Positions 22,247 to 52,719 of a DNA stretch of 54,304 nt are shown in pieces (positions within the stretch are counted from its first letter, which is position 1; each line of letters begins with the position of its first letter). The translations under genes were made by a program, and so were the position numbers. Source of the stretch: Minisyncoccia bacterium (GTDB lineage: Bacteria; Patescibacteriota; Minisyncoccia; SW-4-49-11); NCBI GenBank assembly GCA_044356325.1, contig JBIKWJ010000001.1:1-54304 (forward strand), written 5' to 3'. The notes under the pieces are model-generated. The model was not told the origin of the DNA and did not search any database. It was given only the letters and a program-made list of their open reading frames with translations.

Positions 22247-22271
22247 TTTGAAGTTGTCAATGGATCAATCC

Positions 22272-22643
22272 ATGCGTCGTTCATTATCAGCCCTTCTCCT
22301 TCTCGCCTCCACAGCCCTCGGGCTCGTATCAGGAGCTCCGGTTTCTGCTCAACCGGCTTCTGGTCCAAATAATAGAGTGATTTATCCTGATGTCAGGGTA
22401 TGTGTAACAAAAAAGGATGCATCTTCCTGCTATCGAGTTCCATACAATGATCCTACTTTGATCAGCTTGATGCAAAGACATAAGCCTAAGGTAAAGGAGA
22501 TACATATCCCTTTATTAAGTGATGCCTATGAAAGTGGGATTCTCTTCTGGGGAAGTCTTGTTTTCTTGCTAGTAGCATCTAGTGGGATTGTAGCGTGGAT
22601 GATTTTAGACTGGAAGAAAATTCGTCCTACTAATCCTCACTAA
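22272..22643 (+). CDS. Small exported protein with C-terminal TM helix (cassette 1)
   Basis: Signal peptide MRRSLSALLLLASTALGLVSGAPVSA, Cys pair, own promoter and terminator. Confidence 0.8.
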   Translation: MRRSLSALLLLASTALGLVSGAPVSAQPASGPNNRVIYPDVRVCVTKKDASSCYRVPYNDPTLISLMQRHKPKVKEIHIPLLSDAYESGILFWGSLVFLLVASSGIVAWMILDWKKIRPTNPH

Positions 22644-22664
22644 TCTTATCAACTTACCCAGACT

Positions 22665-22693
22665 AAGACCGGCACCCAGTGTCCGGTCTTTTT
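22665..22693 (+). terminator. Intrinsic terminator of cassette 1
   Basis: AAGACCGG..CCGGTCTTTTT. Confidence 0.8.
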
Positions 22694-22715
22694 CATTTCC
22701 CTCTCAAAAGGTGAT

Positions 22716-22755
22716 GTCATCCACCCTTGACAAAATAGAAGAAATATGCTATAGT
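22716..22755 (+). promoter_or_regulatory. Cassette promoter 2
   Basis: GTCAT-N6-TTGACA-N17-TATAGT, nearly identical to promoter 1. Confidence 0.8.
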
Positions 22756-22791
22756 TTTATCGACCCTCAGAGGGATATCCCTCATCCGATC

Positions 22792-23040
22792 ATGAAACTT
22801 AGTTCTTTTCTTCTCCTTGCAACCACCGCCGCAGCAGCCATCGGGCTCGCTGCTCCAGTACAGGCAGGCGAGACCTCTCGTCTGTGTGAAATGGACAGAA
22901 ATGGCAGTCCTAAGAAATGCTTCTATGTCAAGAAGTCTTCTCTCCCGACAATAATCCGGGATTACTCCTGCGACAAGCCTAATGGGCTTCGTTGCCAACC
23001 TCTGTGGGGAGAGCCTATCTCCTTCCCAAGTATCGATTGA
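22792..23040 (+). CDS. Small secreted 4-Cys protein (cassette 2)
   Basis: Signal peptide MKLSSFLLLATTAAAAIGLAAPVQA; start chosen downstream of the promoter. Confidence 0.8.
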   Translation: MKLSSFLLLATTAAAAIGLAAPVQAGETSRLCEMDRNGSPKKCFYVKKSSLPTIIRDYSCDKPNGLRCQPLWGEPISFPSID

Positions 23041-23056
23041 TTAGACAGATCCTCTC

Positions 23057-23088
23057 GCCGGAACGCATTGCACGGTCCGGCTTTTTTT
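23057..23088 (+). terminator. Intrinsic terminator of cassette 2
   Basis: GCCGGA..TCCGGC followed by a T run. Confidence 0.8.
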
Positions 23089-23107
23089 ATTTACTTTTAA
23101 ATATAAT

Positions 23108-23147
23108 GTTATTAACTATTGATAAAATAGAAAAAGTATGGTATAGT
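23108..23147 (+). promoter_or_regulatory. Cassette promoter 3
   Basis: GTTAT-N6-TTGATA-N17-TATAGT. Confidence 0.75.
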
Positions 23148-23175
23148 TCTCTCGACCTCTAGAGGGATTGTCCTC

Positions 23176-23376
23176 ATGCTAAAATCAGCTCGTTATTTAA
23201 TTTTGGTTATCATTTCATTTCTGTTCTTTGCAAACTTGCCAGTCTATGCGAAAGGAAAAGAGGTTGTTATCCCTACCTTTCATCCACATGCTATATACTG
23301 GACGGCAGGTGTACTGATCCTGATTTTGTTTTGTGGTGTTTGTTATCTCGATAGAAAGGATGATGACTACTATTGA
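23176..23376 (+). CDS. Small membrane protein (cassette 3)
   Basis: Signal peptide ending PVYA plus TM helix; terminator AGCTGGA..TCCGGCTTTTT at 23391-23420. Confidence 0.75.
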   Translation: MLKSARYLILVIISFLFFANLPVYAKGKEVVIPTFHPHAIYWTAGVLILILFCGVCYLDRKDDDYY

Positions 23377-23419
23377 TCATCATCCCTTCAAGCTGGACGC
23401 ATTACGCGCTCCGGCTTTT

Positions 23420-24061
23420 TCATTTCAATTCAGGTAAATTATCCAGAGTATAACAATTCTCAATATTGAATTTTCCAGATTGTCTGCGTTCCAATTCTTC
23501 GAGATAAGCTCCTGTTCCGAGTTTAATACCAATATCATATCCAAGGGACCTGATATAAGTCCCACTAGCACAATATATGTCTAACGTGATGTAAGGATAG
23601 GTATATTCTAATATATCAATACGAGTAATAATCACATTACGCGCAGGTATATCTATATGTTCACCTTTACGGGCTAATTCATACATTTTCTTGCCATTGA
23701 TTTTGATAGCTGAATACATAGGTGGTATTTGCTGTATTTCCCCTATAAATTGCTTGACTACCAATTCTATTTGTTCTCGGGTAGGGATAATATCGGTACT
23801 ATACTCTTGTATGACTCCATCTTTATCATAAGTATCACTTATAAAGCCTAATTTTAGCTTTGTGCGGTATATTTTATCTTGTTTCATAAGAGTATTGCTT
23901 TTTTTGGTAGACTCACGTCCTACAAGCAGAATTAATACTCCAGTGGCAAAAGGGTCAAGAGTTCCCGCATGACCAATCTTTTTGATACCATAAAATCGGC
24001 GTAGCTTATTGACTACGGTGTGAGAAGTGATTCCAGCGGGCTTATTAATAGGAATAATCAT
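23420..24061 (-). CDS. truB: tRNA pseudouridine(55) synthase
   Basis: KIGHAGTLDPFATGVL, PPMYSAIK, GTYIRSL. Confidence 0.97.
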   Translation of the reverse strand: MIIPINKPAGITSHTVVNKLRRFYGIKKIGHAGTLDPFATGVLILLVGRESTKKSNTLMKQDKIYRTKLKLGFISDTYDKDGVIQEYSTDIIPTREQIELVVKQFIGEIQQIPPMYSAIKINGKKMYELARKGEHIDIPARNVIITRIDILEYTYPYITLDIYCASGTYIRSLGYDIGIKLGTGAYLEELERRQSGKFNIENCYTLDNLPELK

Positions 24062-24106
24062 ATAGGCTATTGTAGCATAGATATAGTATATGAGAATAGT
24101 CTTATT

Positions 24107-24490
24107 TCCACCCCGTCAACTTTGTTGACACCCCTCAAGAGGGGCCGGTGGTGGATAGAGAATTCTAAAAGTACTCCACCCCATCCAGCGAAGCTGTCCA
24201 CCCCTCAAGAGGGGAATAATTTAATGCACGAGAAAATTCCCCTCTTGAGGGGTGTATTCCTCCTATACTTTTGTATGGGAGGGAGACGGGGTGGAGTATT
24301 TTTGCAACTTGCTCTCTGTCCCTCGCCTTTTAATCCTACTTGGGATGAGAGGGGTGAATTATTTTTTTCTATATCCACCCCCGCCCTACAGGCTTCCCCC
24401 TCCCTGCCTACCGCAGGCAGGCGAAGGGGGACAAAAATATATATCGCAAAACAACCTCCCCCACCCGTCTGCCGTAGGTAGAAAGGAGGA
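24107..24490. repeat. Large palindromic repeat cluster with a nested CCTGCCT..AGGCAGG element
   Basis: Three CCCCTC(AA/TT)GAGGGG units plus related double hairpins. Confidence 0.85.
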
Positions 24491-24528
24491 CAATATACTT
24501 TTACTACCCCTACTAAATCTACTCAACA

Positions 24529-24556
24529 TAAAAAAGCACCTATATGGTGCTTTTTT
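24529..24556 (-). terminator. Intrinsic terminator of the HU gene
   Basis: AAAAAAGCACC-TATAT-GGTGCTTTTTT. Confidence 0.8.
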
Positions 24557-24578
24557 ATGAGTGCAAGTTATAATATAT

Positions 24579-24854
24579 TTATTTAACTGCATCTTTCAAC
24601 TTCTTTCCTGCTTTGAATTTAGGAGTTTTGGTTGCAGCGATCTTGATCTTTTCTAGAGTTCGTGGGTTAACACCATCTCTTGCTTGTCGTTGGGTTACTG
24701 AGAAAGTCCCAAATCCAGCGAGAGTAACATCTTCCCCTTTAGAAAGGGTCTTGGTCACTACATCAATGAAAGCTTGAAGTACTGCTTCAGAATCCTTCTT
24801 TGAGGTTCCAGCTACATCAGCGATTGCTGATACTAGTTCTGCTTTAGTTGCCAT
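24579..24854 (-). CDS. hup: DNA-binding protein HU
   Basis: KAELV, GFGTF, ARDGVNPRT, PKFKAGKKLKDAV. Confidence 0.97.
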   Translation of the reverse strand: MATKAELVSAIADVAGTSKKDSEAVLQAFIDVVTKTLSKGEDVTLAGFGTFSVTQRQARDGVNPRTLEKIKIAATKTPKFKAGKKLKDAVK

Positions 24855-24955
24855 CTACACACACCTCCTTTCTCATATTGTTTTCCTTAGTATTTGATTG
24901 GATATTATTATCCTTGTTTCATCATATAGTATATATGCGGAGTTGTAAAGGTTTT

Positions 24956-26482
24956 TTACCTTGCATAATCAATAATACGAGTTTCTCGTATCAAAGTAAC
25001 CTTAATTTCACCAGGATATTTGAGCTCTTCTTCTATCTTGAGAGCAATTTTGCGAGCCATTTTTTTGGCTTGTATATCATTAATTTTGTATGGTGTCACG
25101 AATACACGAATCTCACGACCAGCATTAATGGCATAACTTTTATCCACTCCATAAAAAGCATTAGTAATAGCCTCCAATTCACCCAGTCTTTTGATATAAT
25201 TATCCACAGAATCACGCCGAGCTCCAGGTCGAGAAGCTGACAGGGCATCTGCTGCCTGCACAATACGAGATTCTAGACTCTCATAAGGATATTCCTCATG
25301 ATGAGACTGCATAGCCTTGATTACCTCTTCTTTGATACCATATTTACTGAGTACGGTGCGTCCAATTTCCACATGAGTACCCTCAACTTCATGATCAAGA
25401 GCCTTCCCAATATCATGGAAAAGACCTCCCATCTTTGCAATCATCACATTAGCCCCGAGTTCTGCCGCAATAGCTCCCGCCAAATGAGCAACTTCTACAC
25501 TATGCATCAAAACATTTTGCCCATAACTGGTACGGAATTGCAATCGTCCGAGTATATAGGTGAGTTTAGGGTCTATACCTGTAATACCAGTATCATAGAG
25601 AGCAGCCTCTCCTGCCTCTTTAATCTTTTGTTGTACAAGCTCTTTTGATTTAATCACAAATTCCTCAATACGAGCTGGTTGTATACGCCCATCTTCAATC
25701 AAAGCTTCTAGAGCCAGCTTTGCAATATGCCGCCGTATAGGATCAAAACAAGATAATACAATACTATCAGGACTATCATCTATAATAACCTGCACTCCTG
25801 TAGCATTCTCGAGAGCTCGTATATTACGACCTTCTTTTCCAATAATACGCCCCTTTACCTCTTCGCTGTCTATTGACACACTTGCAGTATTAAATTCAGC
25901 AGATTGACCTTGAGCATATTTTTGCATAGCCAGAACCATAATATTCTTGGCTTTTTGTTCCAATTGATTATGCCTAATCCCCTCTAAACGCTCTATTTGT
26001 AATAATAATTCCTCATGAGAAGTCTCTTCTACCTTTTCGAGAAGCTCAGATTTAGCCTGTTCTGTATTAAGCCCAGCAATATGCCCAAGTTCAGTGATTT
26101 GCTTTTGTTTGAGCCCTTCAACCTCTTGATACAAAGCCTTAATTCTCTCCCCCTTTGTCTTGAGTTCAAGTCTATGATTTTCTAATTCCTGTACTTGTTT
26201 TTCCAAGTCCTTTTCCCTTCTCAAAACACTTTCTTCTAGGAGAACAGCGGTTTTCCTAATTTCTGAGGCTTCGGCTCTAGCCTTATCTTTTAGTATTTCC
26301 GCCTCTTGCTCGGCTTCTTTTTTGAGTTTTTTAGACTCTTCTTCGAATTGAGTTTGCAGTGATTGAATTTTAGCTTCTTTTGAATTGATTAATCTTTTGA
26401 CAATGAATAGTCTGAGACCATATCCTATACCAGTACCTATTAATAAGCTTGAAGTCAACCACAATAATGAAATTGCAGTCAT
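24956..26482 (-). CDS. rny: Ribonuclease Y
   Basis: TM plus coiled coil, KH (KGRIIGKEGRNIR), HD domain, SASRPGAR. Confidence 0.97.
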   Translation of the reverse strand: MTAISLLWLTSSLLIGTGIGYGLRLFIVKRLINSKEAKIQSLQTQFEEESKKLKKEAEQEAEILKDKARAEASEIRKTAVLLEESVLRREKDLEKQVQELENHRLELKTKGERIKALYQEVEGLKQKQITELGHIAGLNTEQAKSELLEKVEETSHEELLLQIERLEGIRHNQLEQKAKNIMVLAMQKYAQGQSAEFNTASVSIDSEEVKGRIIGKEGRNIRALENATGVQVIIDDSPDSIVLSCFDPIRRHIAKLALEALIEDGRIQPARIEEFVIKSKELVQQKIKEAGEAALYDTGITGIDPKLTYILGRLQFRTSYGQNVLMHSVEVAHLAGAIAAELGANVMIAKMGGLFHDIGKALDHEVEGTHVEIGRTVLSKYGIKEEVIKAMQSHHEEYPYESLESRIVQAADALSASRPGARRDSVDNYIKRLGELEAITNAFYGVDKSYAINAGREIRVFVTPYKINDIQAKKMARKIALKIEEELKYPGEIKVTLIRETRIIDYAR

Positions 26483-26652
26483 ATAATATTTTGTAAGATA
26501 ATAAACTAAATGTATTTTGCATATACATCACAATTATAGCATAGTAAGCAAGTAAATGCGAATTATAAAATAATAGTTAATTATCAAAAACACAAAAGCA
26601 CCTATCAATATAATTGTTAGGTGCTTTTGTTAGAGAGGCTAATTATCTTGGA

Positions 26653-27912
26653 TTAATACTTTTTTACAAAAGTAAGAGCCCAACCAATTTTATTACCTCG
26701 TCCAGTTCTACCAATACGGTGAATATAATCCTCTTCAGTTCGAGGCAATTCGTAATTGATAACATGAGTAATATCCCCAACATCAATTCCACGAGAAGCC
26801 ACATCGGTTCCAATCATAATCCAAGCCTCATTGCTCTTGAATTTCTTCAACGCAATTTGTCTATGCATTTGAGTCTTGTCACCATGAATAGATTCCACAT
26901 CAAAACCATGTTGTTGTAAATCTCGGTACAAATTCTCTACCGCCATTTTGGTCTCACAGAAAATAAGAACTTTTTTCACTTCATCTTTATTCAAGATATC
27001 CATCAATAAGTCCATTTTATTATCATTACGAGTAACAGTCACAATGTCTTGATGAACATTATTACTAGATACATTGCTAGATAATAATACATTAACTGGA
27101 TTCACAAGGAAAGTCTCCATCAATTGACGAGTTTTTCCTTCAGTTGTAGCAGAGAAGAATAATTTTTGAGTATCTTTTGGAAGTAATTCTAGAATATATC
27201 GAATTTCATCAATAAATCCCATATCAAGCATTCGGTCAACCTCATCCAATACGATGGTTGAAAAACTATCCATATGAATAGCCTTACGATTAATCAAATC
27301 TTTGAATCGTCCAGGAGTTGCAATGATAAAATGATTATGCCGAGATAATCGGAACATTTGCTTACGAATAGGAGTTCCTCCAATACAAACGGTACTATAA
27401 ATACCCTGACCACGATTAGTAATTTTGTGAAGCTCTTGTTCAATTTGAAGAGCTAATTCTCGGGTAGGAGCAAGTATCACAGCTGACTTTTTAGGATCTA
27501 AAGTCATGCTATGAAGAAGTGGAAGCAAGAAAGCCAAAGTTTTACCAGTACCAGTACCAGCAAGTCCAATAACATCATTTCCTGCCATTACAGGTTTAAT
27601 AGCCTGATCTTGAATAGGAGTAGGATTAATCATACCCTTTTCAGTAAGAGCAGCATCAATCCATGATGCAAAACCAAAGTCTTTGAAAGTATGGGTGATT
27701 TTGGTCTCAGCCTCTGGAAGAGGTTCAGCAACCTTCACAAATAAAGAATGGTCAAGTTGTTTAGTACCAGATTTTTTGCCATATCTTCGGCCACCACCTC
27801 CGCCATAGCGAGGTCGTCCGCCAAAAGAATCGCGAGAAGAACTATTATTATATCGAGAAGATGAGTTAGAGCGATTAGAAAATCGACTACTACTATTATT
27901 AGAGTACGCCAT
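26653..27912 (-). CDS. DEAD-box RNA helicase
   Basis: GTGTGKT, PTRELA, DEVD, SAT, HRIGRTGR; start placed at MAYSNN. Confidence 0.96.
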   Translation of the reverse strand: MAYSNNSSSRFSNRSNSSSRYNNSSSRDSFGGRPRYGGGGGRRYGKKSGTKQLDHSLFVKVAEPLPEAETKITHTFKDFGFASWIDAALTEKGMINPTPIQDQAIKPVMAGNDVIGLAGTGTGKTLAFLLPLLHSMTLDPKKSAVILAPTRELALQIEQELHKITNRGQGIYSTVCIGGTPIRKQMFRLSRHNHFIIATPGRFKDLINRKAIHMDSFSTIVLDEVDRMLDMGFIDEIRYILELLPKDTQKLFFSATTEGKTRQLMETFLVNPVNVLLSSNVSSNNVHQDIVTVTRNDNKMDLLMDILNKDEVKKVLIFCETKMAVENLYRDLQQHGFDVESIHGDKTQMHRQIALKKFKSNEAWIMIGTDVASRGIDVGDITHVINYELPRTEEDYIHRIGRTGRGNKIGWALTFVKKY

Positions 27913-28174
27913 ACAAAATATGATTATGAATATGATATGGAATATAGATACCAATCATATACATACTTGTATAAACGCCATCTATGACCACATTGAAGAA
28001 GATTATATCATAGATTATATTATTTGTCAAGTTATAATAACACCAAAATTGAGTTAGGGGTATTCTGTCCTCCCTTGGAGGAGGTGGCACGAAGTGCCGG
28101 AGGTGGATTGTTTTTGTCCTCGTAGGGGTGACCTCTCAGTCGCCTTTTATATATAATAGTTACTAACTATTACT

Positions 28175-29146: not shown

Positions 29147-29227
29147 AATAATTTATATATACTCCATTATACCATAATAATAGCCTAATTTATAATATAA
29201 ATTCATAGAGGAAGGTTTTGTATTTTA

Positions 29228-29351
29228 TCTTCCTTTGGAGGAGGATGACTGAGCTAATTACCCTCTTGAGGGGTGGCAGGCTTTGCCTGACGGGGTGGAA
29301 CCGTATTCTGTCCCCCTTTTAGGAGGGGGTGCCTGAAAGGCGGGGGTGGAT
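29228..29351. repeat. Palindromic repeat cluster
   Basis: CCCTCTTGAGGGG and CCCCCTTTTAGGAGGGGG double-hairpin units. Confidence 0.75.
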
Positions 29352-29367
29352 AAATTTCATAAAACTA

Positions 29368-29407
29368 GTTATAACCTATTGATAAAATTAGGGAAATGTG
29401 CTATTCT
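29368..29407 (+). promoter_or_regulatory. Cassette promoter 4
   Basis: GTTAT-N6-TTGATA-N17-TATTCT with extended -10 TG. Confidence 0.7.
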
Positions 29408-29433
29408 ATTTTTGTTCCCCATGAGCACCCATC

Positions 29434-29796
29434 ATGAGTACCAATTCCATTTCCAGAGGTCCCCTTGTCATATTCGGAGTTGGCTTTGGTTTAATATTGT
29501 TACTAATTCTTATATCAAATGGGTTACGCTTAACAACCTATGTCGCGAATGTTCCTTGCACAGTGATCAAGGCAGAGAATGTTAGAACAAGTGATGAAAG
29601 TAGTTCCTATAGGCTTTTCTGTAAGCAGGAAACATTCGATATCAAGGATGACTGGTGGACAGGCAGATTCACGAGCTCTGACATGTACGGAGCTATTTCT
29701 AATCTCTCCAAAGGATCGGAAATATCTCTAGATGTGTGGGGAATCCGTTTTGGACCCACCAGCGCCAAACGATCTGCAATCAATTGGAGACAGTAA
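29434..29796 (+). CDS. Small membrane-anchored protein (cassette 4)
   Basis: N-terminal TM, Cys pair; terminator ATCCCC..GGGGATTTTT at about 29816-29845. Confidence 0.75.
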   Translation: MSTNSISRGPLVIFGVGFGLILLLILISNGLRLTTYVANVPCTVIKAENVRTSDESSSYRLFCKQETFDIKDDWWTGRFTSSDMYGAISNLSKGSEISLDVWGIRFGPTSAKRSAINWRQ

Positions 29797-29846
29797 ACAG
29801 ATGAGTGTTTCTACCATCCCCCTAGCTATGCCGGGGGATTTTTTTA

Positions 29847-30086: not shown

Positions 30087-30101
30087 AATGATTATTTATC
30101 T

Positions 30102-33245: not shown

Positions 33246-33256
33246 AAGTAGTGTAT

Positions 33257-35022: not shown

Positions 35023-35031
35023 AAAATTGTT

Positions 35032-36357: not shown

Positions 36358-36358
36358 A

Positions 36359-39800: not shown

Positions 39801-40034
39801 CTATGAACTATCTTGAGAGAATGAATCAGGGTATAAACTTGCATCAGATCGAGCAGGGGCACCGAACTGTTGACGCATTACCCATTGAGTAGCTGCTTTC
39901 TGAGCTTGCCAAGCCTGAGCTAATTGCTTACATAGTCCACGTAAGACTTGAGGATCTCCAGTGGCGTCAATCGCTCGAGTCATTCGCTCAAGTTCAAACT
40001 TCTGAAAATCTGACAATTGCATAGAATCATTCAT
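39801..40034 (-). CDS. NblA-like small helical protein (cassette 5)
   Basis: MNDSMQLSDFQKFELERM..LCKQLAQAW..ATQWVMRQQFG; LSxxQxF motif and two-helix pattern; promoter TTGACA-N17-TAATCT at 40088-40060. Confidence 0.6.
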   Translation of the reverse strand: MNDSMQLSDFQKFELERMTRAIDATGDPQVLRGLCKQLAQAWQAQKAATQWVMRQQFGAPARSDASLYPDSFSQDSS

Positions 40035-40161
40035 GACTACACATGCAAAGAGCATATTTAGATTACCCAAATTATCTTATTCTGTCAATATATAGTAGAA
40101 GGTTTTGATTTGACAATATGGGAATACTTATACTGATACATGAAATTTGTTCTTTTTGTCT

Positions 40162-40356: not shown

Positions 40357-40439
40357 GGGAATTATATTTTTATGTTATATGTATTTGATATTCTTGGAAA
40401 AATTATATATAATTACCAAGGTTATCTCCAAATTATCCC

Positions 40440-40724
40440 ATGGATCCACAAATTGCTAACAAACACCGGTCTGCTGTGTTGTTGATAAGAGAAATTATTA
40501 TTTGTGTTAGAAAAAATCAGAAAACAATAAGTAAAGCTCAGTTGATAGATCTTTTAGCAGAGCACCTAGAGACAGAAGAATATTTAAATTACACACAAAA
40601 TATTCTTCTAGTAAATTGTAGAGACAATGATATCCTCACAATAGATGGACAAACTAATAATGTGAGATTTCCAAAACGAAGAGATGGAACCGGGAATGTC
40701 ATAGAGTATCATTATATAAAATAA
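40440..40724 (+). CDS. Hypothetical protein (cassette 6)
   Basis: Promoter GTTAT-N6-TTGATA-N17-TATAAT at 40374-40413; terminator GAGCTCGGG..CTCGAGCTTTTT at about 40744-40772. Confidence 0.7.
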   Translation: MDPQIANKHRSAVLLIREIIICVRKNQKTISKAQLIDLLAEHLETEEYLNYTQNILLVNCRDNDILTIDGQTNNVRFPKRRDGTGNVIEYHYIK

Positions 40725-40823: not shown

Positions 40824-41141
40824 TCAGATTTGCTCTTTGGGAACAAGTCCAAGCCTCTGAACCTCGGATTTGAGATGACAGACTTCGGGTCGAGGCTCAT
40901 CCTTCGGCCAAGTGTCTCCGAGGGAGACAAAGCCTGCCCAGGGTTGTTCCACATACTCCCCACAATTAATCGGTCGAGGGTTGGCTCCATCCCTGATAGC
41001 CGTCCGCATGGCCTCCAAACGGGATTCGGCTCGAGTGGCACGCTCAGAGAGCGGGCATATATACAGGTATAAAGTTAGAGCGGATGTCGCCATCACAGCT
41101 CCTACTATGGTGTAGAGAAACACAGGCGTACTAATGGTCAT
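40824..41141 (-). CDS. Membrane-anchored Cys-containing hypothetical protein (cassette 7)
   Basis: Visibly GC-richer ORF with N-terminal TM; TTGACA promoter at 41211; terminator at about 40779-40807; alternative GTG start at 41150. Confidence 0.7.
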   Translation of the reverse strand: MTISTPVFLYTIVGAVMATSALTLYLYICPLSERATRAESRLEAMRTAIRDGANPRPINCGEYVEQPWAGFVSLGDTWPKDEPRPEVCHLKSEVQRLGLVPKEQI

Positions 41142-41351
41142 GATGTACACCCCCCTTAGGGGGAGAGATAAATGGTCGTGTTATATATAGCATATTTTTA
41201 CATTTTGTCAATAGTAGTGGTCAACTTTTAATACAAAAAAGAGCAATCCACCCTCCCCTTCGGGTACTCCCTCCTAAGGGAGACAGAAGTTCAAAGGAGA
41301 GGGTAAAACAAATACAGGCGACTGGGAGGTCGCCCCTACGAAGAAATATAA

Positions 41352-42212: not shown

Positions 42213-42349
42213 ATTTTAATTTAATGTATGGTTTTATTATAGAATATAACTAAAGAATAGTGAATTATTATTTTCCATAGTGGATAAGTTTATATTTATT
42301 TATAAGTTTGTATTATAGCATATTTGAGGTTGAATTGGGAGCCGAACAC

Positions 42350-42530
42350 ATCCACCTCCGGCACTTCGTGACACCTCCTCCGAAGGAGGACAAGGAGGCA
42401 AGTTGCAAAACACTTCCACCCCGTCCAGCGAAGCTGTCCACCCCTCAATTTATCTCCACCCCTACGGGAGGTAAACCCGTAGGGAGAGAGGGGAATTTAA
42501 AAAGACCACCCTCTGGGAGAGTGGCTTGGG
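42350..42530. repeat. Palindromic repeat cluster with nested insert
   Basis: CCACCTCC..CCTCCGAAGGAGG unit and interrupted CCCCTCAA/GAGGGG unit. Confidence 0.8.
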
Positions 42531-43517: not shown

Positions 43518-43596
43518 AGGGTTATTAAATATACGTTTATTATAACATGTGTTGATGATTTATAAATACACATTATACATTAAGGGTTATTATTTT

Positions 43597-43741
43597 GTCC
43601 CCCTTCGCCTGCCTACCGCAGGCAGGCAAAGGAGGACAGAAACTCAGGTTGCAAAATACTCCACCCCGTCAGGCGAAGCCTGCCACCCCTCAATTTATCT
43701 CCACCCCTACGGGAGATAAACCCGTAGGGAGAGAGGGGAAT
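43597..43741. repeat. Palindromic repeat cluster with both nested element types
   Basis: GCCTGCCTACCGCAGGCAGGC and CTACGGG..CCCGTAG inserts inside hairpin loops. Confidence 0.8.
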
Positions 43742-43838
43742 TTTTAGCACTATCCCAAAATAGCAATAGTAATGGTTATTGTAAATTAACAATAAAAGAA
43801 AAACCCCACCTTGACGACGGGGGTTTTGATAGAAGAGT

Positions 43839-44045
43839 TCATTTGAAAAAGAGAGCTATAATTATCACAACAAGTAAGTAGTTGATGGGAATTGTCGGTA
43901 TAATTCCAATTAGTGTCAGTATAATTTCAATTAGGTAGACACTTAGGAAGACTATAATGAATAACAAGATACCCCAGATAATTTTAGACGCTATATCTCT
44001 TTTCAAGACGGTTTTCGCTTGACTGAGAAGGTTTCTTAGTGACAT
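43839..44045 (-). CDS. Small hydrophobic membrane protein (cassette 8)
   Basis: Promoter GTTAT-N6-TTGACA-N17-TATAGT at 44110-44071; terminator at about 43799-43827. Confidence 0.7.
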   Translation of the reverse strand: MSLRNLLSQAKTVLKRDIASKIIWGILLFIIVFLSVYLIEIILTLIGIIPTIPINYLLVVIIIALFFK

Positions 44046-44117
44046 GTTCAAGCTGTCGGAGGTCGAAAAAACTATAGCATAAAGAGCCTAAAATGTCAAT
44101 ATCTAATAACGTTATCC

Positions 44118-44912: not shown

Positions 44913-44917
44913 ATAAT

Positions 44918-46654: not shown

Positions 46655-46712
46655 AGTATATATACAGTATTCACTTCATACTATGCCATAAAAATTGAAT
46701 TATGGCAAGTTA

Positions 46713-47009
46713 TTACTGAGCTGAAGTTGGCAACCCTCCAGGAATATTTACTGTAGGATTTGTTGCCTCTGGATCTGGTTCAGATATTCCCGCTGCTGGA
46801 TTTGCTGCAGGGGTTGTTGCTGGAGTCTCTATAGTTTGAGATACTTCTTCTAATACGGGAGTAGGCTCTTGATTTTGTCTATATAAAAGATACCCAAGTA
46901 CAGCACCACCTCCAATAACAAGTATTAGGAGAATAAGAGTAGTCCTAGAACCACCATTAGATTGTACTTCTTGTTGTGAGCTTTCAGGTGTTCCAAATGT
47001 ATCTGCCAT
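46713..47009 (-). CDS. Small single-TM protein with Pro/Thr-rich tail
   Basis: 98-aa ORF; starts MADTF like its neighbour. Confidence 0.75.
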   Translation of the reverse strand: MADTFGTPESSQQEVQSNGGSRTTLILLILVIGGGAVLGYLLYRQNQEPTPVLEEVSQTIETPATTPAANPAAGISEPDPEATNPTVNIPGGLPTSAQ

Positions 47010-47030
47010 AATATATTTATTAGCTATTAA

Positions 47031-47540
47031 TTATTGTTCCAATATACCAATAGGACGTGAATAAGGATTAAGTAGATCATCCTCTCCCATAGGAGGACGA
47101 TCACTTCTCTCCTTACTCAAAATTTTGGTAGCATCTTTTCCACAAACATCTGTAGCTTTAATATTTAATGTTTGTGATATATTTGTTTTTATAAAATCTG
47201 AGATATCATATACTATATCATCCACTACGGCCCAACAAGATTCTATTTTTGAATTGACTTCTAATTGCTGTTTAGTAACAATATTATTAGGGTCTATATT
47301 AGATATATTTTTAGCTAAAAATTCTGGATTAACAGATTCTATCGGAGTATTAACTGACTCAGACTTAGTTACTGAATTTACCTCTACATCTGGGTTGGTA
47401 TTAGTATTTTTACCCTGAATTTCTATAGTCATACTGAATCCGATGCTCGCAAGAATAATAAGTATAATAACATTTTTAGAACATCTCTTGGATTGAGTTG
47501 TTTCCGGTGAATATTTTGCTGCACTAAATGTATCTGCCAT
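47031..47540 (-). CDS. Membrane-anchored degenerate cytochrome b5-like protein
   Basis: SCWAVVDDIVYDIS and CGKDAT present, HPGG absent. Confidence 0.8.
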   Translation of the reverse strand: MADTFSAAKYSPETTQSKRCSKNVIILIILASIGFSMTIEIQGKNTNTNPDVEVNSVTKSESVNTPIESVNPEFLAKNISNIDPNNIVTKQQLEVNSKIESCWAVVDDIVYDISDFIKTNISQTLNIKATDVCGKDATKILSKERSDRPPMGEDDLLNPYSRPIGILEQ

Positions 47541-47544
47541 ATAT

Positions 47545-48054
47545 TTAATTTTGTATTGCTTCAGCTAATTTCCCAATTTTAAATCCTACCAAAACATCAC
47601 TTGCACCACCTTCCTTATGCTCAATAGGTTTTGCAAATAATGCTGTTCCATCTTTTCCACAAATTTTAAGGATCTCAGCTTCTCCACCTGGATGATTTGG
47701 TACGTATTTAGTAATATCATATACATTGCCATCAACAATAGTCCAACAGGAAGATTTACTATTATTCTCTGCAACTTGATTGGGGGTAATATTAAGCCCA
47801 GGCACAAGACTACTTGGAATAGAAGCCCCAGCTGAGGGAGTATTTGTTACAGTAGTAGATGTAGGAGCAGTATTAGGTACAGGCTCAGCAATTTCTGGAG
47901 AATTAGTTGTTTTTGACTCACCATTTGATTGGTATACAAGATACCCTAAAAAACTAGCGCAAATAAGTATAAATCCAATAAAAACAATAGTAAATTTTGA
48001 GATTTTTGGTACTTTTTGTTCTACTGATGTATTGGGTGTAATTTTAGGTTCCAT
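47545..48054 (-). CDS. Membrane-anchored cytochrome b5-like heme-binding protein
   Basis: SCWTIVDGNVYDIT..HPGG..CGKDGT. Confidence 0.9.
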   Translation of the reverse strand: MEPKITPNTSVEQKVPKISKFTIVFIGFILICASFLGYLVYQSNGESKTTNSPEIAEPVPNTAPTSTTVTNTPSAGASIPSSLVPGLNITPNQVAENNSKSSCWTIVDGNVYDITKYVPNHPGGEAEILKICGKDGTALFAKPIEHKEGGASDVLVGFKIGKLAEAIQN

Positions 48055-48114
48055 TATTTTATATTGGTATTATAACTTTATAAATAGTATATCATAGAGA
48101 ATATTTTTCTGCAA

Positions 48115-49260
48115 CTATATATTCTTCTTTAATAAGGATATTATGAATAACTCAATATTACGATATAAATATGCTAATCCAAAAGAAATTGGTAAGATAA
48201 TAATTACTGGTATAAGAGCATAGAGAATAATCTGTATAATTAATAACTGATCTGAAAATGGATACAAAATAAAAATCAGTTGCTGTATGGGGAAATGAAA
48301 TAAAAATATCCATAAACTAATACGCCCTAAAGGAGATAATATATTTTGAATCATAGTAGCTATAGGATTAGATTTTTGAAAATAATTCCATAATATAAAT
48401 ATAATAGCAAAACCGAAAAATATCTGAACATTATAAAATGATAAAGACTTCACCGTTGTTTCACTAAGATTAAGATATGGGAGTAAAACAATAATAGAGG
48501 CCTGTAAAGCAAAATATATACAAATCAATTCTTGCCAGATTGAAGATGGGGCTTCACTAAAAATATTTTTTCTCACCATTCCATATACAAAGAATATAAG
48601 ATATTGTCCACATAAGGGTATATCCCATAAATACCAAGTATCAGGGATAGAAAAAGATATGAGAGAAATACTAAGAGCTCCTATAAGGAGATATTTGGGA
48701 CTAATTTTACGAATATAATCTAGTAGTGGATATAGTAAATATAATTGGAATAATACCGGTATAAAATAAAATGGTATAGCTGCTTCTCCAGATATAAGGA
48801 GTTTGGGAAGAGTAATGTCTCCACTATACCCTATTTGCCATAATATAGTAGTGATAATAATATAAGGTATTGCAATACGAATAATTTTGCTTCCATAAAA
48901 TTGTATTATGGCTCTCCCACTCCATACAAAAGGCTTTAATAACAATCCAGATGTAAACAAAAAAACAGGAATAGCAAATCGAAATATATTATTGACAACA
49001 CTTAATAGTATACTATCAAAAAGAGTATTGTATTCAAATCCCAAAAGATAACAGGCGTGAATAATAATCACACTAATAATAGCAATTCCTTTGAGAGTAT
49101 CAATAGAGGCAAGTCTTTTTTGAGGAGGGATATTGATATCTTTAGTGTCAATATCCCAGAATAATTGAGAGTATCGAGGTATCACAAGTAAAATCAGGGT
49201 ACCTATAATCATCACAAGATACTCGAATAGGAATTGACTTTGAACTTGAAAGATATCCAC
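48115..49260 (-). CDS. Acyltransferase-3 family membrane protein
   Basis: IDTLKGIAIISVIIIH, FAIPVF..SG, LGRISLWIFLFH. Confidence 0.88.
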   Translation of the reverse strand: MDIFQVQSQFLFEYLVMIIGTLILLVIPRYSQLFWDIDTKDINIPPQKRLASIDTLKGIAIISVIIIHACYLLGFEYNTLFDSILLSVVNNIFRFAIPVFLFTSGLLLKPFVWSGRAIIQFYGSKIIRIAIPYIIITTILWQIGYSGDITLPKLLISGEAAIPFYFIPVLFQLYLLYPLLDYIRKISPKYLLIGALSISLISFSIPDTWYLWDIPLCGQYLIFFVYGMVRKNIFSEAPSSIWQELICIYFALQASIIVLLPYLNLSETTVKSLSFYNVQIFFGFAIIFILWNYFQKSNPIATMIQNILSPLGRISLWIFLFHFPIQQLIFILYPFSDQLLIIQIILYALIPVIIILPISFGLAYLYRNIELFIISLLKKNI

Positions 49261-49700
49261 TATTTTAGTTCAGCAATAAGAGGCTGTGTATAGGGAGGAA
49301 TAGGGAAAATAAAGGTACGAGTACCGGACTTAGTAACCAAACTATTAAACTGCCTGATATTAGAGTTATGGGTTTTAATCATCTCATCATACTCTTGCCT
49401 CTGCTGATTAAACGCATCAATAGACTTATTATATTTAGGTACTACTTCATTATATTGAGCTATCTTTTTACTAGAAAGCAATTCATCCAAAGTCTCTTTT
49501 TCTTTTGCAAGATTAATCTTCGCTTTTTCTAAATCTTGCTCTTTTTCTGTAATTATAGAGGCCTCTATATTAATGGTATTATCCAATGCTCTCATATTTT
49601 GAGTATCCTCATAGTGTATATGTTCTTGCCAACCCCACCAAGATACATTAGCAACAATATAGCATATTACAAATAGGGTAAAAATTTTTGATATGGACAT
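49260..49700 (-). CDS. Membrane-anchored coiled-coil hypothetical protein
   Basis: N-terminal TM, repeated YN/FN heptad pattern. Confidence 0.75.
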   Translation of the reverse strand: MSISKIFTLFVICYIVANVSWWGWQEHIHYEDTQNMRALDNTINIEASIITEKEQDLEKAKINLAKEKETLDELLSSKKIAQYNEVVPKYNKSIDAFNQQRQEYDEMIKTHNSNIRQFNSLVTKSGTRTFIFPIPPYTQPLIAELK

Positions 49701-49847
49701 ATATATAGTAGCATTTATTTTATTTACTGTATATAGTATATCGTAAATTATATGATTAGTAAAATATTTGTATGAGATGAGGAGATCGTAGACAAAACAG
49801 ATTACTATACATTACTAACCTAGGGTCCCTAACCTGTCACAAAAAGT

Positions 49848-50023
49848 GTCCTCCTTTGCCTGCCTGGGGTAGGCAGGGAGGAGGTGGCCGTCAGGCCGGA
49901 GGTGGATAGAGTTCAAGTCTTTATTTTATCCACCCCCGCCTTTCAGGCTTCCCCCTCCTAAGGGGGACAAAAGTAATAATTCTTTTGTTGCGACAATATA
50001 TGCGACTATAAGGTCGCCCCTAC
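49848..50023. repeat. Palindromic repeat cluster plus GTAG-type REP
   Basis: Double-hairpin units with nested CCTGCCT-GGGGT-AGGCAGG; GGTCGCCCCTAC near 50012. Confidence 0.8.
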
Positions 50024-50073
50024 ACAAATCTCATCTTGTCTAAGATGTATCTCATCTTATTCAATATTTTATA

Positions 50074-50490
50074 TTAACCTAATTCTTTGAAAAAGCTATC
50101 CAAGATACCGTCTATATCATCAATAGTTTTATATTCTTGAACTTGCAAATTTGCATTACCTCCAATCATCGGGGACAATCTTCTCCCTTCTTGCTCACGG
50201 AAAAGGCATAATATAGGTTTTTTACCCTCCATTTGCCCAATTTCATACCCTACTCCCAAACTTGGAGTAGTAACCTCAGCTACTACAATATCTGATTCAT
50301 TGAGCCAATTCATATCCCGCCGATAAATATCAATATCACTAGAATCTTGTTCACCAAAAGTAGTTAATTCACTATCTCCAATATGCTCCGTTAATACCGT
50401 ACCATAGGCTTCAAGTTGTTGTATAATTTGAGCATAGAGATCCTTATCATCTCGCCCTCCTCTAATTGACCCTGCAAAATATATTTTCAT
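50074..50490 (-). CDS. Nucleoside 2-deoxyribosyltransferase / Rcl-like hydrolase
   Basis: IYFAGSIRGGR, VLTEH, AEVTTPSLGVGYEIG. Confidence 0.92.
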   Translation of the reverse strand: MKIYFAGSIRGGRDDKDLYAQIIQQLEAYGTVLTEHIGDSELTTFGEQDSSDIDIYRRDMNWLNESDIVVAEVTTPSLGVGYEIGQMEGKKPILCLFREQEGRRLSPMIGGNANLQVQEYKTIDDIDGILDSFFKELG

Positions 50491-50619
50491 ATTATGTTAT
50501 ATTATTATGTATATATTATATCATAAGTTAAATACGTTATTTATCAAATATAGCTCATATAAGGATATCCACATATACAATTATTAAAGGAAAGTATATA
50601 ATATAAATGATCTTATTAT

Positions 50620-51378
50620 ATGTTTTTAATTAATAATATGTTTGATATTCTATTTGCAAGAACATTCTTTATCGTAGGAGGTATGTTAGTCATAACCGCC
50701 ATTACTGCTCTTATCAACAAAGGATTTGAGACATCATTGGAGTATTGGGGAAGTATTATTGCATTGTTTGGATTATTGATTGCCCTTATGTTTTATGCCA
50801 ATGTTTTTCCTACCAATTTGATTCTTGTGGGACTTTTTTCTGCTATTATGGGCTGGATCATTGGCCCTACAATATCGGCATTAGGTCAACGATATAAGTT
50901 TAGAAAACATCTCAAGAATAATGGAGTTGTGATTGAAAAAGGTCGTAATATCCCTAAAGAATATCAAGAAGAATTTGCGACATCTTTTGATAATGAAGAA
51001 TATCAATCAGAATGGAATAATACTGTCTTTCAAGCACTTTTTGCCACAGCAATAGCAGTATTTGCAACTGGAGGTACAGTTTTCTTAACCAATATTGACT
51101 TTAGTTTTTTGAATGGATTTTTATTTATTTCATTAATTATTTTAGTTATTATGGGGCTATTAAATGTATTCATATTTCGCTCGCATATGTTTACCTTTAT
51201 TAGTTCTTATTTTGGGGCTGTTATTTTTACCCTATATCTCTTATTCGATTTTAATAGACTAGAAGCAATGGCAGGAGATGAGTCATGGGGAACTGCTATT
51301 GATATCTCAGTTAATCTTTATTTAGACATTATTAATTTATTTTTGGATTTACTCACTATACTTTCCGAGTTCAATTAA
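50620..51378 (+). CDS. Bax inhibitor-1/YccA family membrane protein
   Basis: Seven-TM pattern, LYLDIINLFL. Confidence 0.9.
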   Translation: MFLINNMFDILFARTFFIVGGMLVITAITALINKGFETSLEYWGSIIALFGLLIALMFYANVFPTNLILVGLFSAIMGWIIGPTISALGQRYKFRKHLKNNGVVIEKGRNIPKEYQEEFATSFDNEEYQSEWNNTVFQALFATAIAVFATGGTVFLTNIDFSFLNGFLFISLIILVIMGLLNVFIFRSHMFTFISSYFGAVIFTLYLLFDFNRLEAMAGDESWGTAIDISVNLYLDIINLFLDLLTILSEFN

Positions 51379-51396
51379 AATACTAAAGTAGTTTTT

Positions 51397-52101
51397 ATGA
51401 CCATTATACAAAACTCCCTTCGCCAATATGCTTCTCCCGAGAGGAAGGTTAATGTAGAGAGATTTTTTAAAACAGGAAAAGGGCAATATGGAGAGGGCGA
51501 TGAGTTCATTGGGGTAAGTAATCCCGATGTCAGAAAAGTCGCGAGGCAGTACAAAGATATATCATTAGATGAGATAGAGTTACTACTTCATTCCCCTATT
51601 CATGAAGATAGATTATGTGCTCTCATAATACTTGTCAATCAGAACACAAAAGCAAATCCAGAAGCTCAAAAAACTATCGTTAATCTGTATATTGTCAATT
51701 TGCATTATATCAATAATTGGGATCTCGTGGACCTCTCAGCTCATTATATACTCGGTAAAGCTATATATGATGGAATTCAGTCCAAAGATATACTCGATAC
51801 CCTCGCTCCCTCCCCTATTCTCTGGGAGCGAAGAGTTAGCATTATATCTACCTTTTATTTTATCCATAAAGGGAATATTGATGATACCTTGAGATTATCT
51901 AAAGTTTTACTCACAGATAAGGAAGATTTAATGCATAAAGCCGTAGGTTGGGCTTTGAGAGAAGCTTGGAAAAAAGACGCCCCTCGAGTAGAGGAGTTCC
52001 TCCAAAAGAATTATTCTCATATTCCTCGCACCACACTCCGCTATGCTATTGAGCGTATAGAAGAGAATAAGCGTAAGAGATTTTTGAAGGGGATGTTTTA
52101 A
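51397..52101 (+). CDS. DNA alkylation repair protein (AlkD-like)
   Basis: FFKTGKGQYGEGD, NNWDLVD, KAVGWALRE, RTTLRYAIE. Confidence 0.92.
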   Translation: MTIIQNSLRQYASPERKVNVERFFKTGKGQYGEGDEFIGVSNPDVRKVARQYKDISLDEIELLLHSPIHEDRLCALIILVNQNTKANPEAQKTIVNLYIVNLHYINNWDLVDLSAHYILGKAIYDGIQSKDILDTLAPSPILWERRVSIISTFYFIHKGNIDDTLRLSKVLLTDKEDLMHKAVGWALREAWKKDAPRVEEFLQKNYSHIPRTTLRYAIERIEENKRKRFLKGMF

Positions 52102-52169
52102 ACTAGTAAAAACTCCCTACAGACAGTATCTGTAAGGAGCTTTGTTGAAAGTTGTGAGATGCTTTTTAT

Positions 52170-52604
52170 CTACTTATTTTTGATTCTCAGCCACCGATCC
52201 CTGATTTTATTATATAGATCTTGTATGTCTTCAGAGAATACGCTCGCTGAGCATACGAAGATATAGAAATAGATGATACTCAGATATCGGTGAGTATAGA
52301 GAGTTATGCTCATCTCTTGATAACCAATTTTCTCAAAGAGAATTGACATTAGCCGAAGCATAATCGGTAGAGATAGCCAAAAACTCAATATCCAAAAACC
52401 TATGAGAGAATTTCTCCATAATAGTTGAGTACGTATTCCACGTACAGGTTTTATGATATTTGCATAGTAGCCAGATATATACCATGCATAGAGAGCCAGT
52501 GGGGAGGCAGGAATTCCTACCCCAAAGGCAACGGTATCCCAGCCTGCCAATAGGCAGTATAGTGCTGAGAAGACAGCACCCAAAAGCATGAAGATGAATT
52601 CCAT
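52170..52604 (-). CDS. Hypothetical multi-TM protein (cassette 9)
   Basis: Promoter GTTAT-N6-TTGACA-N17-TAATTT at 52673-52634; hairpin at about 52108-52143. Confidence 0.7.
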   Translation of the reverse strand: MEFIFMLLGAVFSALYCLLAGWDTVAFGVGIPASPLALYAWYISGYYANIIKPVRGIRTQLLWRNSLIGFWILSFWLSLPIMLRLMSILFEKIGYQEMSITLYTHRYLSIIYFYIFVCSASVFSEDIQDLYNKIRDRWLRIKNK

Positions 52605-52719
52605 GTTAAAAATGTGCGATTGTGAACTAGATCAAATTAGCATATAGAGTATGTTTTGTCAATATTACATAACTTCTTTACTAGAATTTTTTCTTGACTA
52701 GCTTTCAAGCTAGTACTTC

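Follow-up and report, generated by a model that had tools for sequence, protein, structure and literature searches.

Di-pyrimidine start context of strain-variable gene cassettes in a Minisyncoccia genome whose native genes mostly begin with U-AUG

A U immediately upstream of AUG can pair with A37 of the initiator tRNA and so give a four-base pairing, as stated in an excerpt of Hollerer and Jeschek (2023; PMC10018350), which cites Esposito et al. and Ganoza. In Bacteroidia, which keep an intact anti-Shine-Dalgarno (anti-SD) sequence without using Shine-Dalgarno (SD) motifs, the determinants named in the excerpted parts of Baez et al. (2019; PMC6847099) are A residues at −3, −6, −12 and −13. 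For cyanobacteria, a di-pyrimidine at −1/−2 has been proposed as an initiation signal (Sazuka and Ohara, 1996, as quoted in a section of PMC5622118). Here, nine small gene cassettes (c1 to c9) are compared with these systems. They lie in the window, that is, the whole stretch of 54,304 nt of a Minisyncoccia bacterium that was analysed, and their ATG codons at 22272(+), 22792(+), 23176(+), 29434(+), 40034(−), 40440(+), 41141(−), 44045(−) and 52604(−) are all preceded by C, whereas native genes of the same genome have mostly T at this position.

As genetic units the cassettes resemble phage morons, being autonomous promoter-gene(-terminator) units that are strain-variable and located between conserved genes. 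They differ from morons in that they are not in a recognisable prophage, and no phage structural genes were seen next to them; their distinct start context is a new point. A likeness to integron cassettes is given by c1 to c3, which stand in a row immediately downstream of a tyrosine recombinase gene (Pfam Phage_integrase, E=1e-30) whose product matches the general Phage_integrase and SAM-like domains. However, each window cassette has its own promoter and the recombinase is Xer-like and read in the same direction, so that an integron array was ruled out; no attC-like sites were identified at the cassettes, although no model-based attC search was made.

The genome of the window's assembly (G000; codes of the type G001 denote related genomes) comprises 818,776 bp in 15 contigs with a G+C content of about 35%. 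The window forms the opening 54.3 kb of its contig C1, and the DNA runs that hold this stretch carry lake-water metagenome labels. The native set consisted of 793 home-made, non-overlapping open reading frames (ORFs) of at least 80 aa, whose first ATG gave 776 starts. Start choice through the anti-SD hybridisation energy had given 3-periodic, in-gene artefacts and was replaced by this first-ATG rule. Contigs C3 (6.5 kb) and C10 (3.8 kb) have a G+C content of 0.59 and 0.66 against about 0.35 elsewhere and are probably foreign to the bin; as probable contaminants they were excluded from every count.

Over the 776 starts the base at −1 was T in 78%, A in 11%, G in 6% and C in 5%, and no G-rich (SD) signal was detected at any position upstream of them. 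T(−1) reached 82% at the 661 starts whose first ATG has no other possible start codon before it. Since only 50% of in-frame internal ATGs (n=2900) are preceded by T (A 33, G 15 and C 2%), T is enriched at real starts. Its frequency varied with the gap to the upstream gene, being 94% at 0–15 nt (n=188), 90% at 15–50 nt (n=89) and 62–76% at 100 nt or more, and operon-internal genes had T in 92–94% of cases. GGAG or GAGG at −20 to −5 was present in 17 of 604 T(−1) genes (3%). In the window, the core comparison set (rpoB, rpoC, rpmG, secA, the M16 gene, xer and their neighbours; 2047..22205, + strand) has T at −1 and no SD motif. An earlier reading of this DNA, made from the letters and their ORFs without database searches (the sequence-only reading), had reported T before the ATG of the six named genes, with rpmG at 9860, and this was confirmed for all six.

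The 16S rRNA end (...GGATCACCTCCTTTCTA) retains CCUCC, so the anti-SD is intact. The single initiator tRNA-CAU has three G-C pairs in its anticodon stem and the loop CUCAUAA, so its position 37 is A. With U 5' of AUG in the core genes and A37 in the sole initiator tRNA, the near-obligatory U(−1) of this SD-less lineage fits the published U(−1):A37 pairing and may act through it, although the effect in Escherichia coli is a modest modulation according to the excerpt of PMC10018350; the C(−1) of the cassettes would be unable to form this pair. With the Bacteroidia the genome shares an intact anti-SD without SD use and A-rich sequence upstream of core genes. However, its dominant signal is U(−1), and the excerpt of PMC6847099 reports no such rule. 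A full-text literature search for Patescibacteria combined with Shine-Dalgarno and translation initiation returned no paper, and the 12 papers listed by a broader search included none on candidate phyla radiation (CPR) bacteria. As a separate observation, C1:73477-73649 and the tRNA set hold only two CAU tRNAs, the initiator and the elongator Met, and tRNA-Ile has a UAU anticodon; AUA seems to be read in G000 without a lysidine-type tRNA-Ile2.

Among 11 genomes of the genus T(−1) ranged from 57 to 100%, and from 78 to 100% in the seven that yielded 10 or more ORFs. It was 73% in a family member with a G+C content of 0.49. In six other families of the class (9–14 ORFs sampled) it was 44–58% in five and 7% in G014, where A reached 64%. 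The samples of the relatives are small (20 kb, 4–36 ORFs each), and SD-like motifs were near zero in them except in G016, for which only 2 ORFs were sampled.

The sequence-only reading had contrasted these native starts with nine C-ATG strings, and each of these 9-mers is present at its implied place; one of them, CAATCCATG, has a further copy within a gene at 27657(+). Nine C of nine have a probability of about 2e-12 at the 5% genome rate, so that chance is excluded, and of 0.44^9 = 6e-4 at the class rate of 0.44. When the first-ATG rule was applied to the 47 window ORFs of at least 80 aa, C(−1) appeared in 3, all of them cassettes (c4, c6 and c9). For extending the count, promoter modules were located in G000 with a hidden Markov model (HMM) built from 25 copies in that genome, which at E<=0.05 finds 6 of the 9 window promoters (c8 has E=0.17; c5 and c6 are missed), and in 11 other genomes of the genus by a pattern search (7–23 matches per genome; 0–1 in the reversed control). 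The first ATG located 15–60 nt past the −10 box and opening an ORF of at least 30 aa was taken as the start. This fixed rule gave 138 starts, which were grouped by N-terminal peptide into 95 clusters pooled over 12 genomes of the genus, because relatives are kin and partly share cassettes.

Under the fixed rule the 37 starts of G000 had C 13, T 17, A 5 and G 2, and the 101 of the relatives C 39, T 39, A 19 and G 4. All 6 window modules found gave C, and the other 31 of G000 gave C 7, T 17, A 5 and G 2, these 7 C of 31 being in excess of the 5% rate (P=7e-4). By clusters the counts were C 42, T 33, A 17 and G 3, and in the 90 clusters without a window member they were C 37, T 33, A 17 and G 3. 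The contrast between cassette and core starts was thus replicated genome-wide and outside the window (T 78% and C 5% of 776 starts versus C in 42 of 95 clusters), and the nine of nine in the window are the upper tail of a real C frequency of about 40%, an 8-fold enrichment, within a YY-AUG context (Y, pyrimidine).

The pyrimidine preference extends over two positions. In the 68 short-ORF clusters, −1 was C 46, T 35, A 18 and G 1% (C+T 81%) and −2 was C 44, T 41, A 13 and G 1% (C+T 85%); from −3 to −14 C stood at 13–22%, and G reached 41% at −11. YY at −2/−1 was found in 65 of 95 clusters versus 256 of 773 genes genome-wide, and AT-ATG, the favourite of core genes, in 2 of 95 versus 335 of 773. 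The window cassettes have a pyrimidine at −1 in 9 of 9 cases and at both positions in 7 of 9. SD-led initiation was considered and discarded for both classes, as GGAG or GAGG occurs in 3% of T(−1) core genes and in 10 of 41 C(−1) cassette clusters; in the window only c3 (GAGGG) and c7 (a G run) have an SD-like motif at a usable distance. Kozak-like features beyond C(−1) were not enriched in the nine cassettes, where by eye 6 of 9 have a purine at −3 versus about 55% genome-wide and G at +4 in 2 of 9. Elsewhere in G000, a GC-rich gene (0.57) at C1:216748-217932 also lies behind the promoter module and has a full GGAGG; its product is 395 aa long and has a signal-peptide-like N-terminus. Between this gene and its orthologues in G002, G008, G009 and G010 the −1 base varies (T, C, T and G, and one GTG start), and this base seems to be free where an SD is present.

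The cassettes are strain-variable insertions. Close relatives with 97–98% RpoC identity were used for comparison, and in G010 xer directly adjoins truB, so c1 to c3 are missing from it. G010 also lacks the whole 28.1–42.5 kb island and has the c8 and c9 slots empty, and G008 and G003 have other DNA in the cassette slots. In a class sample of 301 genomes c5 was found in 2, both of this genus (1 of 10 within the genus), and c7 in 5, all of this genus with 40–58% identity (4 of 10 within it); c9 occurred in 0 of 10 within the genus and in four distant genera of the class sample. A small T(−1) control gene was present in 10 of 10 genomes of the genus. In addition, in a DNA contig of run X9, taken from a different sample, the opening codons of c1 are linked to c2 at its codon 12 (22285 to 22827), with 15 other letters between them; this is a hybrid cassette in a related strain, and further rearrangements were seen in 22.2–23.1 kb.

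Composition also sets the cassettes apart. In 8 of the 9 ORFs the G+C content at third codon positions (GC3) is at or above the 82nd percentile of the genome, and the median GC3 of C(−1) genes is 0.35 versus 0.22 for T(−1) genes (P=2e-6). The GC3 of about 0.2 in rpoB and rpoC argues against an expression-linked codon bias. T(−1) occurred in 48/54, 72/92, 36/50, 30/49 and 6/31 genes across GC3 bins. Core-like first cistrons (GC3<0.28, at least 150 aa, n=127) had T in 82% and C in 6% at −1, with A in 47% at −2, while first cistrons with a GC3 of at least 0.33 (n=62) had T 37, C 26, A 21 and G 16% at −1 and C in 44% at −2. The start context tracks composition and origin and not operon position.

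A donor was traced for c5. This cassette has 363 relatives at E<=0.01, and the names found among the best 120 of them, 13 in all, are Cyanobium, Synechococcaceae or Cyanobacteriota, with 62–72% identity; for picocyanobacterial homologues as such, 58–74% identity to c5 was noted. The nearest atlas clusters belong to Cyanobacteriota and Uroviricota. Relatives are encoded by 80 metagenome loci (58–77% identity over the best segment), the contigs of which have a G+C content of 0.53–0.70 in all but one (0.43) of the 63 scored loci. The family is present on 21 viral contigs, and c5 gave no match against named phage and plasmid collections. In the family loci the ATG is mostly placed after CC or TC (...cgccgctcgCC-ATG, ...gttcagTC-ATG), the exceptions having G, A or T. 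To judge from these relatives, c5 demonstrably derives from picocyanobacteria or their phages, and a distinct C-terminal tail (...QDSS) that, by eye, the Paceibacterial copies share suggests a single acquisition. The c5 protein is cytoplasmic-looking and has no signal peptide. Its identification as NblA was rejected, as 3 of 20 family members match Pfam PF04485 with a best E of 0.052, the nearest atlas cluster with NblA scores 0.76 and there is no PDB match.

No donor could be named for c1, c4 and c7 or for one cassette outside the window. The 18 relatives of c7 are all unnamed, as are the 6 of a 133-aa cassette with a G+C content of 0.58 at C1:218092-218493; c1 has atlas scores of at most 0.87 and no named relative, and the 30 relatives of c4 bear no useful name. 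Scans of viral contigs gave no match for c2, c4 and c9 and only a 19-residue match for c7. When 40 cassette proteins of G000 were compared by tblastn with the cyanobacterial and viral loci fetched for c5, only self-hits were obtained (four G000 loci). Two weak similarities of c4 were recorded: a 713-aa predicted protein of a shrimp genome with five matching stretches (E=5e-7), which may be contamination or chance, and a sub-threshold Pfam match to an integrin-beta-like N-terminal domain (E=0.0067).

The explanation that we favour, and to which we give about an even chance, is that imported cassette genes keep a foreign, cyanobacterium-like di-pyrimidine context alongside the native U(−1) rule. 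Native genes of this SD-less Paceibacteria lineage would start with (A)U-AUG, whereas the cassettes would have been imported, placed behind a strong sigma-70 promoter module and would have kept, or been selected for, a non-native start region. This region would have pyrimidines at −2/−1, C being at least as frequent as U, almost no G there and a weak G-rich patch at about −11, and one leader subfamily would add a small 5' stem-loop. C before ATG would then chiefly indicate that a gene is of foreign origin and not fully adapted to the host rule, and would not be a tag, because the YY context has been described for cyanobacteria and at least c5 comes from picocyanobacteria or their phages. The likeness to the cyanobacterial signal is in the 65 of 95 YY clusters and in the c5 homologues with mostly CC-ATG or TC-ATG; the difference is that here a Patescibacteria genome bears the signal, and that within it the accessory cassette genes alone have it. 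The cyanobacterial YY rule was taken from the literature and the c5 family, as the starts called in GC-rich cyanobacterial loci had a codon-periodic profile and were discarded as false.

Several points weigh against this explanation. In the window, the type I restriction, Fic and RhuM-like genes of the island are strain-variable too and have T at −1, so being accessory is not enough for C(−1). Since only c5 was traced among c1, c4, c5 and c7, the outside origin of the other eight cassettes is unproven, and a donor-derived context is presumed for them. The GC3 of c5 has already come down to 0.30, yet C(−1) is present in both diverged Paceibacterial copies, which is awkward for a gene described as not yet ameliorated. 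The nine of nine C of the window exceeds the class rate of about 0.41–0.44, and G and AT-ATG are avoided so strongly that some recipient-side selection, and not inheritance alone, is suggested. In addition, gene calls were crude (first ATG, ORFs of at least 80 aa, GTG and TTG starts ignored), and transcription starts were taken from promoter geometry, none having been mapped.

Because G and AT-ATG are near-absent at cassette starts, a dedicated start region on the recipient side stays a serious rival, though we think it somewhat unlikely. According to it, short-leader monocistronic mRNAs would have a separate, selected initiation mode made up of YY, a weak SD-like G patch near −11 and a 5' hairpin. 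Such a mode might hold back or regulate the translation of membrane or secreted proteins whose promoter is very strong, or might use the anti-SD instead of U(−1):A37. C at −1 and at −2 is each about 2.3-fold over the rest of the leader (P of about 5e-7 and 2e-6), with G in 1 of 68 at each, and AT-ATG falls to 2 of 95 clusters from 43% genome-wide. GGAG or GAGG is 7-fold commoner in non-T genes (8/38 vs 17/604, P=4e-5), although within the module class the excess of SD-like motifs at C(−1) over T(−1) starts is weak (10/41 vs 2/32, P=0.056). A GAGG...CCUC stem ends exactly at −1 in the c3, G004, G008 and G011 leaders; however, the stems are invariant and without covariation, and several z-scores are weaker than −2. 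Long ORFs behind the module behave alike (15 clusters: C 7, T 7) and C(−1) is retained in orthologues of c5, c6, c1, c2 and c3, but 12 multi-member clusters show no excess of conservation at these two positions, with identities of 0.59 at −1 and 0.51 at −2 against 0.43–0.69 over the rest of the leader. Core first cistrons with an equal promoter-to-ATG spacing (20–35 nt) use AU-AUG, which also argues against a dedicated region.

A broader proposal, made tentatively and in our opinion unlikely, is that two start dialects coexist, the native one with near-obligatory U(−1) and the di-pyrimidine, weak-SD one of a mobile pool derived in part from picocyanobacteria or their phages. Still bolder, some cassette products such as that of c5 might act inside a picocyanobacterial partner.

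Common descent of a mobile promoter-leader module, with C(−1), CGACC and the hairpin all inherited up to the start codon, is a doubtful alternative for C(−1). CGACC, which the sequence-only reading had seen in four leaders, was found at 22761 (c2), 23153 (c3), 41178(−) (c7) and 44065(−) (c8), beginning in each 6 nt past the −10 hexamer (by eye, with a scripted check for c2 and c3). At +7 past the −10 box, G is present in 56% of 165 distinct modules versus 6–27% elsewhere, and it is likely the transcription start. CGACC at +6 was present in 9 of the 165 modules of the genus, with about 0.03 expected from a genome frequency of 1.8e-4 per position, and in 8 of these 9 it is followed by YTCWAGAGGG, which marks one homologous leader subfamily near the likely transcription start and no general tag. 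The common 5' tag formerly proposed for the cassettes is therefore not supported, and the genome-wide enrichment expected with it held for C(−1), with about 40% of cassette clusters versus 5%, whereas CGACC is confined to that subfamily. Descent is further indicated by a 59-nt repeat that precedes c1 to c4, by 18 identical nt (TATAGTTTTATCGACCCT) at c2 and at C8:108104, and by the recurrence of c1-, c2- and c3-type leaders in six relatives (G002, G004, G005, G006, G008 and G011). However, leader similarity ends 10–25 nt before the ATG, and the last 8–12 nt of c2-type leaders are almost wholly different (atccgatc, acccttcac, actaatacc), though all end in C. The c2 leader copy at C8:108104 ends in T-ATG, and C is found in 37 of 90 unrelated clusters outside the window. 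Because the similarity is lost before the ATG is reached, module descent accounts for CGACC and the hairpin and leaves C(−1) unexplained.

The three hairpin strings of the sequence-only reading are located at 22764, 23156 and 41163(−). In the CGACC subfamily the minimum-energy structure is GAGGG-loop-CCCUC in 10 of 11 members (−5.5 to −11.3 kcal/mol), which differs from the CCCTCAGAGGG proposed before. Its loops vary and its stems are invariant, so there is no covariation, and the 3' arm of the stem ends at −1 in four members (c3, G004, G008 and G011). A 5' stem-loop about 8 nt from the presumed 5' end could stabilise the mRNA. No Rfam family besides tRNAs was found in the window. Concerning expression, the contigs of a metatranscriptome run cover the HU-like gene, the RNase Y-like gene, the helicase and truB, and at the cassettes no more than 56 nt, from the leader and start of c2 (22774–22829).

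Other repeats were noted around these leaders. The 59-nt repeat copies before c1 and c2 (22191–22249 and 22700–22758) begin in the last codons and stop of xer (CCTCTTAAAAAGTGATG vs CCTCTCAAAAGGTGATG), so the c2 copy retains a remnant of the xer 3' end, pointing to a tandem duplication or to a site-specific insertion where the recombinase gene ends. Intergenic GC-rich hairpin repeats (CCCCTCAAGAGGGG and relatives) occupy 1606–1780, 10650–10752, 20868–20977, 24112–24462, 41248–41343, 42415–42498 and 43660–43743, and the hairpin of c2-type leaders, GACCCTCAGAGGGA, resembles their core.

That the true starts are others than those picked, so that C(−1) would be an artefact of start choice, is very improbable. 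The sequence-only reading itself had chosen several starts among alternatives, and such alternatives exist. Cassette 1 (22218..22643, +) has its −35 box at 22218–22223, its −10 box at 22241–22246, a leader at 22247–22271 and the chosen ATG at 22272 (tcc-ATG), from which the ORF runs to 22643 (123 aa, signal-peptide-like N-terminus). An in-frame ATG with A at −1 lies 12 nt upstream, at 22260, and c1-type leaders have an in-frame ATG (G000, G008) or GTG (G011, G004) exactly at this distance. That codon would be only about 6–7 nt past the presumed transcription start, a possible near-leaderless alternative start, and the c1 start is ambiguous between 22260 and 22272. Cassette 7 (40824..41211, −; −35 at 41211–41206, TGcTATATA −10 at 41189–41184, CGACC at 41178–41174, ATG at 41141 after atc) has the hairpin CCCCCTAAGGGGG at 41163–41151, an ORF to 40824 (105 aa) and an in-frame GTG 9 nt upstream, at 41150. 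In cassette 8 (43839..44099, −; −35 at 44099–44094, −10 at 44076–44071, CGACC at 44065–44061, ATG at 44045 after aac), which encodes 68 aa of membrane-segment-like character to 43839, an in-frame TTG stands 6 nt upstream.

Against such an artefact, the fixed rule gives C for all 6 modules found and, when applied by hand, for c5, c6 and c8 too. The start of cassette 5 (39801..40088, −; −35 at 40088–40083, −10 TAATCT at 40065–40060, ORF of 77 aa to 39801) is fixed by homology at 40034 (gtc-ATG), as the N-terminal Met of 20 homologues aligns there, and its orthologue in G009 reads ...gtaagtCC-ATG without an upstream ATG. Cassette 6 (40385..40724, +; TTGATA at 40385–40390, TATAAT at 40408–40413, ATG at 40440 after ccc, 94 aa to 40724) is fixed by its orthologues in G003 (80% identity) and G008 (70%), which keep CCC-ATG or TCC-ATG. 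The chosen Met of c1, c2 and c3 heads, by eye, a signal-peptide-like segment. Cassette 2 (22727..23040, +; −35 at 22727, −10 at 22750–22755, CGACC at 22761–22765) has the G at +7 that is the presumed transcription start, a GAGGG/CCCTC hairpin at 22770–22783 and an ORF of 82 aa from the ATG at 22792 (atc-ATG) to 23040. In cassette 3 (23119..23376, +; −35 at 23119, −10 at 23142–23147, CGACC at 23153–23157) the GAGG(G) at 23162–23166 pairs with the CCTC at 23172–23175, abutting the ATG at 23176 of a 66-aa ORF that ends at 23376.

The other two cassettes encode membrane-type proteins. Cassette 4 (29379..29796, +; −35 at 29379, −10 at 29402–29407, ATG at 29434 after atc) encodes 120 aa to 29796 with an N-terminal membrane segment, and an out-of-frame ATG at 29421 likewise has C before it. 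Cassette 9 (52170..52662, −; −35 at 52662–52657, −10 TAATTT at 52639–52634, ATG at 52604 after aac) encodes a multi-pass membrane-like protein of 144 aa to 52170. All cassette promoters are of the bacterial sigma-70 type, with TTGACA or TTGATA, a 16–17 nt spacer and a (TG)n-TATAGT-like −10 box, and a consensus scan matched 11, 11 and 10 of 12 positions for c1, c2 and c3, with the TG extension. Used as a probe of genome contigs, the promoter core matched Clostridia, Gammaproteobacteria, Saccharibacteria and many others; being a generic strong sigma-70 consensus, it was of no use for finding relatives. Leaderless mRNAs were ruled out by the position of the ATGs, 25–41 nt downstream of the −10 hexamer, with transcription starts placed by promoter geometry. 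A terminator-like hairpin was scored after c1, and hairpins with T-runs were seen by eye after c2 and c3.

The sequence-only reading had speculated that these mRNAs bear a 5' tag or are built for the ribosome of another organism, perhaps with delivery of RNA in view. Part of that interpretation stands, namely a non-native start context that resembles the one of another group, the cyanobacterial YY, and a c5 of picocyanobacterial origin; the tag and the RNA delivery do not, and export is hardly credible. In its favour are that resemblance, the cytoplasmic-looking c5 family without signal peptide in picocyanobacteria and on viral contigs, and the observation in lakes of CPR cells, Gracilibacteria, associated with cyanobacteria (PMC9166423, in the excerpted text). 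However, no 5' sequence is common to all cassettes, tRNAs are the sole Rfam families in the window, C(−1) is the only enriched Kozak-like feature of the cassettes, nothing in the results bears on RNA export, the promoters are bacterial and the N-termini of several cassette proteins are, by eye, signal-peptide-like (Sec-type) or membrane-segment-like. RNA delivery and tuning to foreign ribosomes are thus unsupported, and since a context inherited from donors explains the data no export is needed.

A cause at the DNA level, in which a CATG-specific restriction or methylation system removed CATG from native DNA but left it in young DNA, is scarcely tenable: CATG is indeed the most under-represented of the 256 tetranucleotides in G000 (observed/expected 0.56) and C precedes only 2.1% of in-frame internal ATGs, but A (11%) and G (6%) are depleted at −1 as well, so that the main force is a preference for T, cassettes with GTG starts also have C(−1) (gcc-GTG in G002, ctc-GTG in G011) and −2 is pyrimidine-rich too. 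After CATG, ACGT (0.58) and GATC (0.59) are the next most under-represented tetranucleotides of G000, which looks like an avoidance of palindromes or restriction sites.

As context for these findings, a cyanobacterial association is reported only for Gracilibacteria in the excerpt of PMC9166423, an ecogenomic paper. If the two start contexts are as described, about 80–94% U(−1) without SD would be an unusually clean natural case of four-base initiator pairing, and the U(−1) rule would improve the prediction of gene starts in CPR genomes. A start context restricted to cassettes would be a simple flag for recent imports and a marker, readable from sequence alone, of genes derived from hosts or prey, and c5 would be the first concrete link of gene flow between this genus and picocyanobacteria or their phages. 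Should the two dialects also prove true, they would point to picocyanobacteria as the partner of this uncultured CPR lineage.

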